In this document: positions 8,666-15,254 of the stretch, piece after piece | Position numbering within the stretch: the first letter of the stretch is position 1 | Layout of the letters: each line of letters starts with the position of its first letter | Source of the DNA: an uncultured Lachnospiraceae bacterium | GTDB lineage: Bacteria; Bacillota; Clostridia; Lachnospirales; Lachnospiraceae | Direction: 5' to 3' | Length of the DNA stretch: 41,963 nucleotides | NCBI GenBank assembly: GCA_902764045.1 | Contig: CACWUI010000001.1 | Span: 1-41,963, forward strand | Notes under the pieces: generated by a model | What the model saw: the letters and a program-made list of their open reading frames with translations, nothing else | Told to the model about the DNA's origin: nothing | Database searches by the model: none | Translations under genes and position numbers: made by a program

Positions 8666-8671
8666 CATATA

Positions 8672-8707
8672 AAGATGACTGAATAAGATTTCGGTCATCT
8701 TTTTTTG
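8672..8707 (+). terminator. Rho-independent terminator of the adhesin gene
   Basis: AGATGACTGA (8672-8681) pairs with TCGGTCATCT (8691-8700), with one G-U pair. A T7 run follows. Confidence 0.75.
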
Positions 8708-8709
8708 TG

Positions 8710-8880
8710 TTACCTTTTCTGATCAATAAGACAAAAACGGTTCTGTCTTCTGTTAAAAAACAGGAAACAGAACCGTTCCGACACTACCTTTTACTCAGGA
8801 CACGATGACGGTTCTTGAGTCCTGTTTTTCTGCGAAAAACAAGACACAAAAACCGTCCCCATGTCCCTCGGGGTCACCTT
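8710..8880. repeat. Cluster of REP-like palindromic units (GACGGTTCTGTC / GACAGAACCGTC family) plus a three-times repeated ACCTTTTCTG-like motif
   Basis: AACGGTTCTGT (8736-8746) and ACAGAACCGTT (8767-8777) form an inverted repeat. GACGGTT (8807-8813) and AACCGTC (8851-8857) form another. Motif copies are TACCTTTTCTGA at ~8710, TACCTTTTACTCA at ~8786 and CACCTTTTCTGCA at ~8874. Confidence 0.6.
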
Positions 8881-8918
8881 TTCTGCAAAAACAGGATGTA
8901 AAAAAGTTTTTAAAAAAC

Positions 8919-8947
8919 TTTACAAAAAAGCCTAAAGGATATACAAT
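8919..8947 (+). promoter_or_regulatory. Sigma-A-type promoter of a small RNA (TTTACA-N17-TACAAT)
   Basis: TTTACA is at 8919-8924, followed by a 17-nt spacer and TACAAT at 8942-8947. Confidence 0.55.
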
Positions 8948-8953
8948 ATCACT

Positions 8954-9016
8954 GTACGAAACAAAGAATCCAAGTAAAACAACGAAAACCCCTGAGCGGC
9001 AACTCAGGGGTTTTCT
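8954..9016 (+). ncRNA. Candidate antitoxin sRNA (~60 nt) of a type I TA module
   Basis: It starts about 7 nt after the -10 box. It ends in the hairpin CCCCTGAG (8989-8996) / CTCAGGGG (9003-9010) plus TTTT. It contains TCCAAGTAAAACA (8969-8981), which is complementary to the start region of the 9145..9062 ORF. A second copy is at 12490-12550. Confidence 0.5.
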
Positions 9017-9061
9017 ATTCCATTTTTGTATAAAGGAGGCTTAATCCTTTTTGCTACCAAC

Positions 9062-9145
9062 TTATTTGCCGTCCAGCCATTTGCAGATAAAGTATGCAAC
9101 GATACTTGCTGCAAGGGAGACGATAAACGAGACAAAATTCTCCAA
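9062..9145 (-). CDS. Candidate type I toxin, a 27-aa hydrophobic peptide (Fst/PepA1-like); it is too short to appear in the ORF track
   Basis: A GGAGG box is followed 8 nt later by a TTG start. The peptide is LENFVSFIVSLAASIVAYFICKWLDGK, one transmembrane-like helix with a short charged tail. It has its own promoter and a convergent sRNA that shares its terminator. Confidence 0.55.
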   Translation of the reverse strand: MENFVSFIVSLAASIVAYFICKWLDGK

Positions 9146-9190
9146 GTAAAACACCTCCTTTCTGTACCCAGTATAGAGGTGGTAGCCGAA

Positions 9191-9302
9191 TTATTGTAAC
9201 AGATGTTCGGTATTTTATCAAGAAATATTTACGGCTATTGATAAATTGTTTGAAGAAGATCGGAGGGCTATTGCGGGAGACCGGAGGACGGTTCGAGGAG
9301 AC
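9191..9302. repeat. ~110-bp dispersed repeat, copy A (promoter block plus GC-rich upstream part)
   Basis: It is about 90% identical to 12343-12455. It contains the inverted repeat TTATCAA-N16-TTGATAA and the segment GGAGACCGG(A/G)GGACGG(G)TTCGAGGAGAC. Confidence 0.85.
9193..9221 (-). promoter_or_regulatory. Sigma-A-type promoter for the toxin transcript (TTGATA-N17-TACAAT on the minus strand)
   Basis: The minus strand reads cTTGATAaaataccgaacatctgtTACAATaattcgg. The same promoter block is repeated at 12345-12373. Confidence 0.6.
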
Positions 9303-9349
9303 AGGGTGACAGTTTTCTGTCTCCCATATGGAGACTGAGAACTGTCACC
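9297..9349. repeat. Nested REP-like palindromes at the 3' end of the AraC gene
   Basis: GGAGACAG (9297-9304) pairs with CTGTCTCC (9317-9324). GGTGACAGTT (9305-9314) pairs with AACTGTCACC (9340-9349). GTCTCC-catatg-GGAGAC forms a third palindrome. Confidence 0.7.
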
Positions 9350-10199: not shown

Positions 10200-10409
10200 T
10201 AAATACTCCTTATTTTAAAAAACGTGCTAATGGCAGATATTTTAACACATTTTTACGGAAGAGAGGTCCAAATATAGAAAATAATCCTATTTTAATGAAA
10301 AAAAGTTCAATATTTATGTCGATATATGGAATATAATGCAATCATCCTTAAAACATCGAAAACAGACCGAACAACAATTTTAAAAACCAAAAAAAGGGAG
10401 GTAATTATT

Positions 10410-10646
10410 ATGAGAAATTATAACAGTACAAGCAGATGCTTACCGGGCTACAACAGCTGCGGTGTAGAAAATGGCCGAAGGAGTCAGTCAGAGGTAAAGG
10501 CGCCGGTATCCGGTAAAATGTCATGCAAGCCGGGATATAACAACTGTGCTATCGGCGGAGAGCCAAGACCAAGGACTGTACATGCAAAGGCAAGCGACGG
10601 AAACGGCAACAGGTGTAAGCCGGGATTTAACAGCTGCCATATCTGA
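10410..10646 (+). CDS. 78-aa basic peptide with three C-X6-C repeats (C[LK]PG[YF]N[SN]C)
   Basis: The SD AGGGAGG lies 8 nt before the ATG at 10410. The track ORF starts at 10326, which has no SD. The peptide is MRNYNSTSRCLPGYNSCGVENGRRSQSEVKAPVSGKMSCKPGYNNCAIGGEPRPRTVHAKASDGNGNRCKPGFNSCHI. A strong terminator lies downstream. Confidence 0.6.
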   Translation: MRNYNSTSRCLPGYNSCGVENGRRSQSEVKAPVSGKMSCKPGYNNCAIGGEPRPRTVHAKASDGNGNRCKPGFNSCHI

Positions 10647-11111: not shown

Positions 11112-12254
11112 CTATTTATCAGTATTATCATCTAATTCCGGATGTTGCACATAAAACATTTCTTTTTGTGATTCAATTTCTGCTCGTAATTGCTCTTCTG
11201 TAGGTAGGCAAAGACGATATTTACTGGCAAAAAGCTGTTCATTTCCATGTAAGATCGAATATCGTGCGATATCCTCATCTGTCTCAGAGCACAAAACGAT
11301 ACCAAGTGTAGGATTATCCTCCGGTTGTTTTCTTAATTCGTCGTACATCCTGACATACATATCCATTTGACCCACGTCCTGATGCGTTATCTTTCCAATT
11401 TTCAAATCTACTAAAACAAAGCATTTTAAGATATAATTATAAAATACAATGTCTATATAATAATCTTCCTTCTCTGTATGAATTCGCTGTTGCCGTTCCA
11501 CAAAAGCAAAGCCTTTTCCTATCTCCATCATAAACTTTTCCAAATTTACAATAATATTTTTCTCAAGCTCCGGTTCATGATATTTTCTATTTTCTTCCAT
11601 TCCTAAGAAATCGGCAATAATAGGATTTCTTAAAAATTCATATTTTTTCCGGTAAGGGTTTACATTTTCTTTCATTTCTTCCTCGACCGACTTTTTATCA
11701 GTCGATAAAAGCGTTCGTTCATAATACTGTGTATTAATATTCCGCCTCAATGTATGTACAGACCATGACTGTTCTATAGCCTCTTTCTCATACCATGCCC
11801 TTGCTTCAGAATCAGAGACCTGAAGTAAACGTTCATAATGAGACCATGTAAGAATTCTTCTATCTTTATTAATTATTGCACTTTCACTAAATTGTGGGGT
11901 CAGCGTCCCCATAACCTTTGAATTAAAGACACTATCTGATTGTGGGGTCAGTGTCCCCACAATCTCCGGATAAGTCTGATAAAACTGCACATATCTATAA
12001 AGAGAGCGTTTATCAAAACCCTTACCATATTTTTGAGTTAGCTCTTCGGATAATTTAGATATGATACCCTCACCGTATCTTTCATTTCGTGAACCATTCA
12101 TATTTTCTCTTGAGATACGCATACCAAGGAGCCAGTTTCGAAGTACCAGTACTGTATTTACAGATGTCATTGCAGACTGTTGGGCATTTTCTACAATACT
12201 ATCTAAATCCCTTTGCAAATCATCCGACATATTGTATTCAATAAGCTCATTCAT
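11112..12254 (-). CDS. DUF1016/YhcG-family PD-(D/E)xK nuclease domain protein
   Basis: The segment EDYYIDIVFYNYILKCFVLVDLKIGKITHQDVGQMDMYV matches the D...(D/E)xK core of the YhcG family. The duplicated GTLTPQ segment and LTWSHYERLL are typical of the N-terminal DUF1016 region. Confidence 0.8.
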   Translation of the reverse strand: MNELIEYNMSDDLQRDLDSIVENAQQSAMTSVNTVLVLRNWLLGMRISRENMNGSRNERYGEGIISKLSEELTQKYGKGFDKRSLYRYVQFYQTYPEIVGTLTPQSDSVFNSKVMGTLTPQFSESAIINKDRRILTWSHYERLLQVSDSEARAWYEKEAIEQSWSVHTLRRNINTQYYERTLLSTDKKSVEEEMKENVNPYRKKYEFLRNPIIADFLGMEENRKYHEPELEKNIIVNLEKFMMEIGKGFAFVERQQRIHTEKEDYYIDIVFYNYILKCFVLVDLKIGKITHQDVGQMDMYVRMYDELRKQPEDNPTLGIVLCSETDEDIARYSILHGNEQLFASKYRLCLPTEEQLRAEIESQKEMFYVQHPELDDNTDK

Positions 12255-14620: not shown

Positions 14621-14857
14621 ATGATAGAAGCATCTGCTACGGAAATGCAAAATAATTTCGGGAGGTATTTAAGTATGGTTATGGAAGGCAACGAGGTTAT
14701 CGTGACTAAAAACGGAAAAAATGTACGGCGTTTTATTCCCCAGGATGCAGTGGTGTCATTTTTAAGTGATTCACTCAAAGGTGTTCTGAAAGGGAATTAC
14801 GATCTTAAAAAAGAAAATAAGGAAAGGCTGACGAAAAAATATGAAACTTCTCATTGA
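14621..14857 (+). CDS. Phd/YefM-family type II antitoxin
   Basis: The N-terminus reads ASATEMQNNFGRYLSMVMEGNEVIVTKNGKNVRRFIP, which is typical of Phd/YefM. It overlaps the downstream PIN gene by 17 nt. Confidence 0.8.
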   Translation: MIEASATEMQNNFGRYLSMVMEGNEVIVTKNGKNVRRFIPQDAVVSFLSDSLKGVLKGNYDLKKENKERLTKKYETSH

Positions 14858-15254
14858 TGCAAATATAGTCCTTGACGTTTTACAGGATCGAAAGCCCCAT
14901 GTGGATAATTCATTGCTGATATGGAAGCTTTGTGAAGCAGGGATGGCGGAAGGGCATATTCTGACTTTGTCTTTTGCAAATCTGGTTTATGTTATGAGAA
15001 AGGAAATGGATTTTGTAAAAATAGAAAACACATTTAATACCATGGCCCGTATTTTCTCATTTGCTGAGTTGAAACAGAGGGATTTGGGAAATGCAGCAGT
15101 TCTGCATTGGGAAGATTTTGAGGATGCATTGCAAAGCGTAACCGCCGAAAGGATCGGAGCGGACTACATTATTACAAGGAATGTAAAAGATTATGAAGGA
15201 AGTTGTGTGAAGGCGATCACGCCGGAGAGTTTTTTGAGCGGTTTTCAGATGTGA
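14841..15254 (+). CDS. PIN-domain ribonuclease toxin (VapC-like)
   Basis: MKLLIDANIVLDVL contains the first acidic PIN residue. The C-terminal region reads DFEDALQ...ADYIITRN. The length is 137 aa and it is translationally coupled to the antitoxin. Confidence 0.8.
   Translation: MKLLIDANIVLDVLQDRKPHVDNSLLIWKLCEAGMAEGHILTLSFANLVYVMRKEMDFVKIENTFNTMARIFSFAELKQRDLGNAAVLHWEDFEDALQSVTAERIGADYIITRNVKDYEGSCVKAITPESFLSGFQM

Follow-up and report, generated by a model that had tools for sequence, protein, structure and literature searches.

The systems closest to the locus described here are the type I toxin-antitoxin modules of the Fst/Ldr superfamily, among them the par locus of plasmid pAD1. The layout of par comprises convergent promoters, the direct repeats DRa and DRb, a bidirectional terminator, a 5' stem-loop (5'-SL) and a 5' upstream helix (5'-UH) (Weaver 2020, PMC7472228). 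Peptides of the superfamily are recognized by a Trp between the transmembrane helix and the charged tail (PMC2887945, PMC7472228), and the helix of the majority of them carries a P/D/S/T-XXX-G(C) motif, with a DXXXG clade in Streptococcus pneumoniae (PMC7472228). Here we describe a region around positions 8919-9221 of a 41,963-nt stretch of contig CACWUI010000001.1, from an uncultured Lachnospiraceae bacterium; the whole stretch is referred to below as the window. The region is very probably an Fst-type type I toxin-antitoxin cassette with par-like antisense occlusion of the translation-initiation region. The par/Fst kind of cassette is already known, and the window locus is a further, ordinary member of it.

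In S. pneumoniae, tandem Fst-A/Fst-B genes were described between fcsR and adcA, Fst-B was toxic in E. coli when over-expressed and an antisense RNA of 65-75 nt was detected (Fozo et al. 2010, PMC2887945). Fst-like sequences in Clostridiales were already reported in the same study, the alignment of which includes a C. bolteae sequence (PMC2887945), and a 2019 review of type I systems in Clostridia gives such matches only in C. bolteae and C. asparagiforme (PMC6563280). The RNA-based pipeline of T1TAdb recovers Fst/RNA II loci poorly, at 29 % (PMC8594479).

The window shares with par of pAD1 the convergent promoters, the two repeat blocks over the Shine-Dalgarno sequence (SD) and start codon, a bidirectional terminator common to both RNAs, a 5' helix that occludes the SD, a further helix that takes up the mRNA 5' end and a small RNA (sRNA) of ~65 nt (PMC7472228). 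Unlike that of pAD1, the window copy is apparently chromosomal, and many of its relatives have the partner of the mRNA 5' end within the open reading frame (ORF). Fst of pAD1 itself, with PXXXG in its helix and Val replacing Trp, has no detectable peptide similarity to the window peptide past the superfamily signature.

Organization of the cassette and predicted pairing of its RNAs

The window contains one copy of the cassette, the elements of which are as follows (MFE, minimum free energy; UTR, untranslated region).

8919-8947, plus strand: antitoxin sRNA (RNA II-like) promoter, TTTACA-N17-TACAAT (consensus scan 10/12)
8954-9022, plus strand: predicted antitoxin sRNA of ~65-70 nt, with a 30-nt unstructured 5' tail ahead of the terminator hairpin in its fold
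8956-8981, plus strand: interaction tail of the sRNA, with DRb' at 8956-8966 and DRa' at 8969-8981 (13-mer repeat, duplex prediction)
8984-9015, both strands: bidirectional intrinsic terminator with perfect 13-bp arms, common to both RNAs (terminator scan, inverted repeat)
8976-9186, minus strand: predicted toxin mRNA of ~210 nt, from the G of GCUACC to the U-tract past the terminator
9032-9050, minus strand: small hairpin of the 3'UTR, AAAGGA-uuaagcc-UCCUUU, whose UAAGCC loop is conserved (MFE fold)
9053-9058, minus strand: 3' arm GGUAGC, which lies in the 3'UTR and pairs with the 5' arm (MFE fold, covariation)
9062-9145, minus strand: toxin ORF MENFVSFIVSLAASIVAYFICKWLDGK, with a TTG start at 9145-9143, 27 codons and a stop at 9064-9062
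9127-9137, minus strand: DRb-like mRNA target, codons 4-7 (predicted duplex with sRNA 8956-8966)
9141-9153, minus strand: DRa-like mRNA target, comprising SD spacer, start codon and codon 2 (complementary to sRNA 8969-8981)
9152-9158, minus strand: SD GGAGGUG, with an 8-nt spacer to the TTG (direct sequence reading)
9175-9180, minus strand: anti-SD ACCUCU (pairs with GGAGGU in the MFE fold; covariation)
9181-9186, minus strand: 5' arm GCUACC, the 5' strand of a closing helix like the upstream helix (UH) (MFE fold, covariation)
9193-9221, minus strand: toxin (RNA I-like) promoter, TTGATA-N17-TACAAT (consensus scan 10/12), with TG just 5' of the -10 hexamer (extended -10)

Direct reading of both strands, together with the consensus scan, places both promoters, the SD with its spacer, the TTG and the 27-codon ORF where a preliminary description of this DNA had put them; the ORF finder lists the ORF from an upstream GTG located within the SD. 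The start of the toxin mRNA was placed by its spacing from the -10 hexamer and by the 5' end conserved across the family, and the mRNA and the sRNA were set as 9186-8976 and 8954-9022, respectively, for folding with ViennaRNA. The ORF stop (9062) is 46 nt away from the terminator stem, and the sRNA does not overlap the ORF. The terminator had been proposed to serve both RNAs, and the scan calls the hairpin terminator-like on either strand; the hairpin then given, 8989-9010, is real but only the core of the full stem at 8984-9015.

In the MFE fold of the mRNA, bases 1-6 (GCUACC) pair with GGUAGC at 9058-9053 in the 3'UTR and the next six bases (ACCUCU) pair with the GGAGGU of the SD, with the SD-sequestering helix nested within the 5'-3' closing helix. 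This fold contains the sequestration of the SD by CACCTC (9181-9176) that had been suggested from the letters alone. A conserved 3'UTR motif, AAGCC(A/U)CC, was considered as a second anti-SD and dropped, as it folds as the loop and 3' strand of the local hairpin.

Exactly two copies of the 13-mer TCCAAGTAAAACA are present, at 8969-8981 and 9141-9153, as the preliminary description had reported. The chance expectation is 0.08, and two or more occurrences were found in none of 100 shuffles. Pairing in trans between the sRNA and the translation-initiation region of the toxin mRNA had been proposed from this repeat. The duplex prediction supports the pairing itself but not its restriction to one 13-mer: block 1 consists of 13 bp over 9153-9141, and block 2 follows past a 3-nt bulge at 9137-9127, with 6 bp, a 1-nt gap and 4 bp. 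Because of the second paired block, the pairing is better described as two blocks, as in DRa/DRb of par. The duplex of the sRNA tail has a predicted energy of -26.4 kcal/mol, compared with -12.5 ± 2.7 kcal/mol for shuffled sRNA tails, of which 0/1000 reach the observed value.

The repeat, hairpin and promoter hexamers might in principle be a chance set around the ordinary bidirectional terminator of two convergent genes. The cassette does lie between an upstream plus-strand gene and the 3' end of a minus-strand gene, and promoter-like sites are no commoner in the region than in shuffled sequences (3 vs 1.8 ± 1.2 expected), a number that is not significant alone, so that the case rests on the combination of elements and on their conservation. 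The promoter-like sites carry weight because their positions are conserved across relatives: a -10-like hexamer is found at the position equivalent to the toxin promoter in 69/76 related loci, and an antisense promoter at the equivalent place in 65/71, with at least four of six -35 positions matched in 57 of these 65. The sRNAs predicted across the family are 65-91 nt long, with a median of 76 nt. A coincidental assembly is also contradicted by the 13-mer repeat, which is far above chance; by the homology of the window to other loci, which ends sharply with limits at ~8963-9201; and by the flanking genes, each of which has its own terminator (8671-8702 for the gene of a 2794-aa LPXTG surface protein and 9305-9349 for that of an AraC-family regulator). 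As homology is confined to ~8963-9201, the cassette is a compact unit of ~240-300 bp in unrelated flanks. With the whole arrangement recurring, with covariation, in hundreds of unrelated contexts, the explanation by chance is effectively refuted.

Conservation of the repeats, the reading frame and the mRNA structure

The two repeat copies covary within loci and do not drift independently. When the start region (-22 to +36) was compared by local alignment with the 70 nt past the terminator in 76 distinct loci, the mean score was 15.6 within a locus and 6.7 between loci, and a locus's own partner was the unique best in 60/76; the exceptions are mostly near-duplicate loci. The test was replicated with 49 distinct loci from viral contigs, in which the scores were 15.6 and 6.9 and the own partner was uniquely best in 30. 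In all eight loci inspected by eye, the repeat consists of two blocks separated by a small indel.

The ORF shows the evolutionary pattern of coding sequence. Over an ungapped 19-codon core in 70 distinct sequences, positional entropy is 0.62, 0.21 and 1.08 at codon positions 1, 2 and 3, respectively, and 54 % of codon differences are synonymous in frame, compared with 18 % and 10 % in the two shifted frames. CKWLD is invariant across 73 distinct homologues, which differ mostly at third codon positions. An SD-like motif lies 5' of the chosen start in 79/82 parsed loci, and the start codons of 76 distinct loci are ATG in 40, TTG in 24 and GTG in 12.

RNAalifold applied to the full mRNA alignment recovered only the terminator, with many compensatory changes, and an intra-ORF hairpin. 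Since it missed the 5' helices, these were tested with an explicit structure (5' arm/3' arm plus anti-SD/SD) on 32 aligned mRNAs that have the 3' arm in the 3'UTR, as in the window. Pairing was found in 85.9 % of cells, compared with 38-58 % when the partner columns were slid, and double-sided changes in 38 cells, compared with 8-17 in the slid controls; for three of five measures (percentage paired, double-sided changes and covariation score) none of 500 shuffles matched the observed value. The arms covary at columns 11/164 (CG 14, UA 11) and 13/162 (AU 12, GC 12), and the SD, as GGGGG or GGAGG, covaries with an anti-SD of CCCC or CCUC (columns 20/49: CG 17, UA 6). This covariation supports both a leader helix that sequesters the SD and a helix between the 5' end and the 3' region, the latter of which may be the equivalent of the pAD1 upstream helix, by analogy. 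The 3'UTR hairpin with its UAAGCC loop has moderate support, with 73.6 % of cells paired compared with ~50 % in most slid controls and 75 % for a slide of +1.

Over 70 loci, the two arms change in concert, the paired types being GCTACC/GGTAGC, GTTGCC/GGCAAC, GTTACC/GGTAAC, GTTGTC/GACAAC and GCTGTGA/TCACAGC; locus L015 (L numbers denote related loci) has the fully compensated arm variant GTTATCATC/GATGATAAC. In about half of these 70 loci the 3' arm is inside the end of the ORF. Last-codon GACAAC, GACAAT or GATAAC is then the 3' partner of the 5' arm and encodes the recurrent '…DN' tails, as seen in L019, L023, L028, L030, L032, L037, L056, L059, L079, L081 and L015. The RNA structure thus seems to shape the C-terminus of the peptide.

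The 5' arm has a second, local covarying partner just 5' of the SD (74.8 % paired, at most 57 % when slid). This local pairing is topologically incompatible with the SD-sequestering helix, so a conformational switch in the toxin mRNA is possible. The toxin mRNA recalls that of hok/sok of plasmid R1 in its long-range 5'-3' pairing and in the mutually exclusive second partner of the 5' arm. In hok mRNA, fold-back inhibition is combined with metastable hairpins. Unlike hok/sok, the cassette has no leader ORF (mok), its antisense RNA lies on the 3' side and would act in trans via repeats, and its peptide belongs to an unrelated family.

We propose that the minus-strand promoter drives an mRNA of ~210 nt that encodes a membrane peptide of 27 residues with a single helix. 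The extreme 5' end of the mRNA and its 3'UTR would close the UH-like helix, presumably stabilising the mRNA, and the next six bases would hold the SD, as the 5' stem-loop (SL) does in par RNA I, and silence translation. The convergent plus-strand promoter would give an sRNA of ~65-70 nt that finishes in the shared terminator. The sRNA and the mRNA would be complementary over the terminator and, in trans, via the two direct-repeat blocks, and the 5' tail of the sRNA would mask the mRNA from the SD spacer through the start codon to codon 7, by which ribosome binding would be blocked. Upon loss or depletion of the sRNA, the stable mRNA would be translated and the peptide would damage the membrane. 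We infer transcription from either promoter from the sequence, and the relative stabilities of the two RNAs are presumed in the same way.

Relationship to Fst peptides and to the Rfam family RF02442

The window peptide carries the superfamily signature, with a hydrophobic stretch at residues 4-21 followed by K22-W23-L-D25-G-K27. At least 90 % of its family have Ser at position 10, and position 14 is occupied by Ser or Gly; in the pneumococcal DVIAG, the aligned residues are D and G, respectively. Pneumococcal Fst-A and Fst-B share the C-terminal signature …Y-F/Y-I/V-C-K-W-L-D-G… and, at the same helix position, a polar-XXX-small motif, and their antisense RNA of ~65-75 nt at the 3' end (PMC2887945) compares with the ~65-70 nt predicted here. 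The window locus differs from them in its Clostridia host, in S-XXX-S/G in place of D-XXX-G and in a shorter N-terminus.

The pneumococcal link is also found at the RNA level. The Rfam family RF02442, 'SpF66 sRNA', has full-length matches on the toxin-mRNA strand of relatives; they exceed its gathering score of 42 bits in L008 (51.7 bits, spanning 2460-2670), L021 (43.8 bits) and L028 (43.6 bits) and reach 26-42 bits in 11 further loci. Translated from its AUG, the RF02442 consensus reads MSLILELVLTIIADVIAGIILYFVCKWLDGKE and then a stop, a 32-aa Fst-type peptide ending …CKWLDGKE, with which the profile of the 73 family peptides aligns at a hhalign probability of 98 % (E = 1.8e-13). The best curated matches of this peptide are the Fst models NF033608 (E = 1e-3) and PF13955 (E = 0.025), both below cut-off (18.9 vs 26 bits and 14.9 vs 36 bits, respectively); it also weakly matches the N-terminal part of NF047374, a model of C. 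difficile toxins. F66 maps to 2086087-2086325 of TIGR4, between SP2168 and SP2169, and was catalogued as an sRNA (PMC3395615). This gap is taken to be the fcsR-adcA interval of Fst-A/Fst-B, and the experiments of Fozo et al. concern Fst-B, which lies in tandem next to the F66-encoded gene. F67, the neighbour of F66, is annotated as an Fst-family toxin in PneumoBrowse (PMC12323649). The profile comparison and the RF02442 matches argue that the link to the Fst family is one of homology, not mere resemblance. The RF02442 'sRNA', with a consensus that encodes the peptide, is really a toxin mRNA.

The opposite assignment, in which the minus-strand transcript is a non-coding sRNA and the small ORF incidental, would follow the Rfam label of SpF66, as RF02442 is typed 'Gene; sRNA' and F66 is listed among pneumococcal sRNAs (PMC3395615). 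It is very unlikely, being at odds with the codon-position pattern, the in-frame excess of synonymous changes, the invariant CKWLD and the conserved SD and start codon, as well as with the annotation of F67 as a toxin (PMC12323649).

Several observations nevertheless weigh against the assignment of the window locus to Fst-type, par-like cassettes. The window peptide has no Pfam match at E <= 10 and no match to NF033608 in NCBIfam, where its sole match is the sub-threshold one to NF047374 (13.1 bits, E = 0.093, cut-off 60), which covers only the N-terminal half of the profile. Its helix motif, S10-L-A-A-S14, has a Ser at the Gly position, and the ORF starts with TTG. The window matches RF02442 over its full length at 8974-9186 on the minus strand, but with 20.6 bits vs 42 (E = 0.019); likewise, 8956-9014 on the plus strand matches RF02844, RefA9, over its full length with 26.2 bits vs 49 (E = 0.15). 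RefA9 is the sRNA of the pTEF1 par locus (PMC3166299, PMC4408782), and the match is suggestive of the same shape, not of membership. On the sRNA strand the U-tract after the terminator is broken up (UUUUCUAUUCCAUUUUU), and the terminator loop, UUGCCG, has no YUNR U-turn. The pneumococcal link was drawn from the Rfam consensus and from published accounts. Across the family, a YUNR is present in 12/71 terminator loops on the toxin strand and 9/71 on the sRNA strand. The likeness to RNA I/RNA II of pAD1 par drawn in the preliminary description holds for the layout, in the window and in ~125 distinct related loci, but not for the U-turn; every other par architectural feature examined is present in the window.

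Curated models match the relatives of the window peptide weakly as well. NF033608 is matched by 6/73 (best E 0.026) and Pfam Ldr_toxin by 5/73, all sub-threshold, and a profile search of the peptide family against PDB found no match. Weak N-terminal matches to NF047374 are found in 60/73 (best E = 3e-4), which hints that the C. difficile toxins may be distantly related to the Fst superfamily. Those type I toxins (NF047374; CD2517.1-RCd8 type) are likewise small membrane peptides of Clostridia associated with mobile elements, but are ~50 aa long (51 positions in the NF047374 profile) compared with 27 aa in the window. They carry a long Lys-rich tail, and their antitoxins are reportedly overlapping cis-antisense RNAs, not direct-repeat par-type sRNAs.

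The tail of the window peptide had been likened to those of PepA1/Fst-type toxins. For Fst this is borne out by the homology to the RF02442/F66 peptide, while for PepA1 the likeness is at the level of the superfamily only. The SprA1/SprA1AS (PepA1) system of S. aureus belongs to the same superfamily and also has a 3'-overlapping antisense RNA that pairs in trans at the translation-initiation region (PMC7472228, PMC8594479). Its tail …F-S-Y-W-L… resembles the window-type …I-C-K-W-L…, but PepA1 has PXXXGC in its helix and an Arg/Lys-rich tail, and the tie is a resemblance, not a demonstrated relationship.

Distribution, neighbourhood and meaning of the cassette family

Distant blastn with 8900-9240 as query matched seven plasmids, in stretches without any listed feature; four of the seven are RefSeq records, and the PLSDB gene table on which the absence of features is read is incomplete. 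The plasmids are those of Waltera intestinalis (5.6 kb) and Mediterraneibacter gnavus (6.9 kb, where the cassette adjoins rep and mobQ), two uncultured gut plasmids (3.7 and 7.3 kb) and plasmids of Butyricicoccus, Clostridium perfringens and Ligilactobacillus salivarius. All seven share the layout of the cassette and encode the same peptide type, with CKWLD invariant. A tblastn of the consensus peptide against plasmids gave no match because the query is short and of low complexity. When one genome of each GTDB species was scanned with a back-translated pattern, at least 485 places were confirmed in species-representative genomes, in Lachnospiraceae, Ruminococcus, Faecalibacterium, Anaerococcus and others, and in the Negativicutes Dialister, Veillonella, Megasphaera and Anaerovibrio. 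At least 90 viral contigs in IMG/VR carry the cassette peptide; phage GenBank records gave spurious 30-nt matches only.

Several genomes have multiple copies, the repeat pairs of which are mostly distinct, and in three of four genome pairs the cross scores of co-resident copies are lower than their self scores, although this test is weakly informative. Tandem cassettes on the same strand, in two to three copies 0.3-2.4 kb apart, occur in 10/87 related loci (L010, L012, L015, L024, L031, L037, L042, L043, L050 and L051), an arrangement that mirrors the pneumococcal tandem of Fst-A and Fst-B.

The presence of several homologues on small plasmids near rep genes, and a weak match of the antisense strand of a relative to Rfam ctRNA_pGA1 (30 bits vs a gathering score of 45), would fit an sRNA that is a plasmid copy-number counter-transcript (ctRNA) left by an integrated plasmid. 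It is the terminator hairpin, however, that accounts for the ctRNA_pGA1 match, the antisense tail has its complement in the translation-initiation region of the peptide and not in a rep leader, and the majority of loci lie on chromosomes or viral contigs and adjoin no rep gene, which makes such an origin improbable in the extreme.

A regulatory or accessory role deserves more weight. The computed evidence shows only a conserved, translationally repressed small membrane peptide, the window copy has an apparently chromosomal neighbourhood and the roles of chromosomal Fst loci are obscure according to a review (PMC7472228); the product could accordingly be a conserved small membrane protein under antisense control, neither a toxin nor part of an addiction module. 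We consider this unlikely for three reasons. Over-expression of Fst-B, from the pneumococcal locus of the matching F66 peptide, is toxic (PMC2887945). Small plasmids and viral contigs are enriched in the cassette, which adjoins rep/mob genes there, as is typical of addiction modules. Finally, an elaborate silencing at two levels, in which the SD is sequestered and the antisense RNA pairs with the mRNA, would be expected if the product were dangerous. Toxicity of the window peptide is presumed by homology to pneumococcal Fst-B, and the plasmid and phage copies of the Fst-type cassette probably serve in post-segregational killing or in the maintenance of mobile elements.

Farther along from the two flanking genes, the window encodes a YhcG nuclease, LigT, a PIN-domain protein, a major facilitator superfamily transporter and a phosphotransferase system EIIC component. 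The YhcG/DUF1016 PDDEXK nuclease lies at 11112-12254 (minus strand) and the PIN_3-domain protein, which is type II toxin-like, at 14841-15254 (plus strand). The G + C fraction of the stretch that holds these two genes is 0.37-0.41, compared with 0.45-0.49 downstream; this low G + C content and the YhcG and PIN_3 genes suggest an accessory-gene islet around the cassette. The neighbourhood is accessory-looking yet apparently chromosomal.

Adjoining the AraC-family regulator, a 106-aa ORF at 10326-10646 (plus strand) has three Cys-framed repeats, CLPGYNSCGV, CKPGYNNCAIGG and CKPGFNSCHI; it has no Pfam match and may encode a secreted Cys-rich peptide or one resembling ribosomally synthesized and post-translationally modified peptides. 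Two long imperfect hairpins, at 8736-8777 (19-nt arms, 89 % complementary) and 8798-8866 (33-nt arms, 82 % complementary), sit between the surface-protein terminator and the cassette, and Rfam miRNA and leader matches in 8730-8870 were rejected as artefacts of them. On the C. perfringens plasmid p21-D-5b (L003), a strongly matching tetrahydrofolate riboswitch (RF01831, 91 bits) at 2175-2276, unrelated to the cassette, lies upstream of the gene for a folate energy-coupling factor transporter S component, ~0.5 kb from the Fst-type cassette.

The branch to which the window locus belongs is large, mostly unannotated and common in gut Firmicutes. The string CKWLD was not found in the literature searched, and what appears to be undescribed is the size and breadth of the branch, its mRNA architecture and the identity of an Rfam 'sRNA' family with its toxin mRNA. 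A bolder proposal is held only tentatively, with more doubt than conviction: the CKWLD clade, found in hundreds of species on chromosomes, plasmids and phages and essentially unannotated, may be the dominant type I family of gut Firmicutes, and its mRNA may carry a hok-like conformational switch, with an RNA helix dictating the '…(G/S)DN' tail. In such a switch, the local partner of the 5' arm would free the SD and the 3' partner would lock it; in members with the 3' partner in the ORF, a 5' arm of GUUGUC may pair with GACAAC, the codons for Asp-Asn.

The finding leaves the understanding of how type I systems work unchanged, and for this genome it adds a small gene and an sRNA overlooked by gene callers. 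For the family, it means that an Fst-type cassette very common in gut Clostridia and Negativicutes is unannotated even in RefSeq plasmids and that the curated Fst hidden Markov models (HMMs) fall short; a dedicated peptide HMM and a covariance model would annotate hundreds of loci, and RF02442 'SpF66 sRNA' should be re-typed as a toxin mRNA. Where they occur on small plasmids and prophages in gut commensals, such cassettes probably act as maintenance modules, which matters for plasmid curing and vector design and is relevant to counter-selection tools similar to those already derived from the type I toxins of C. difficile.

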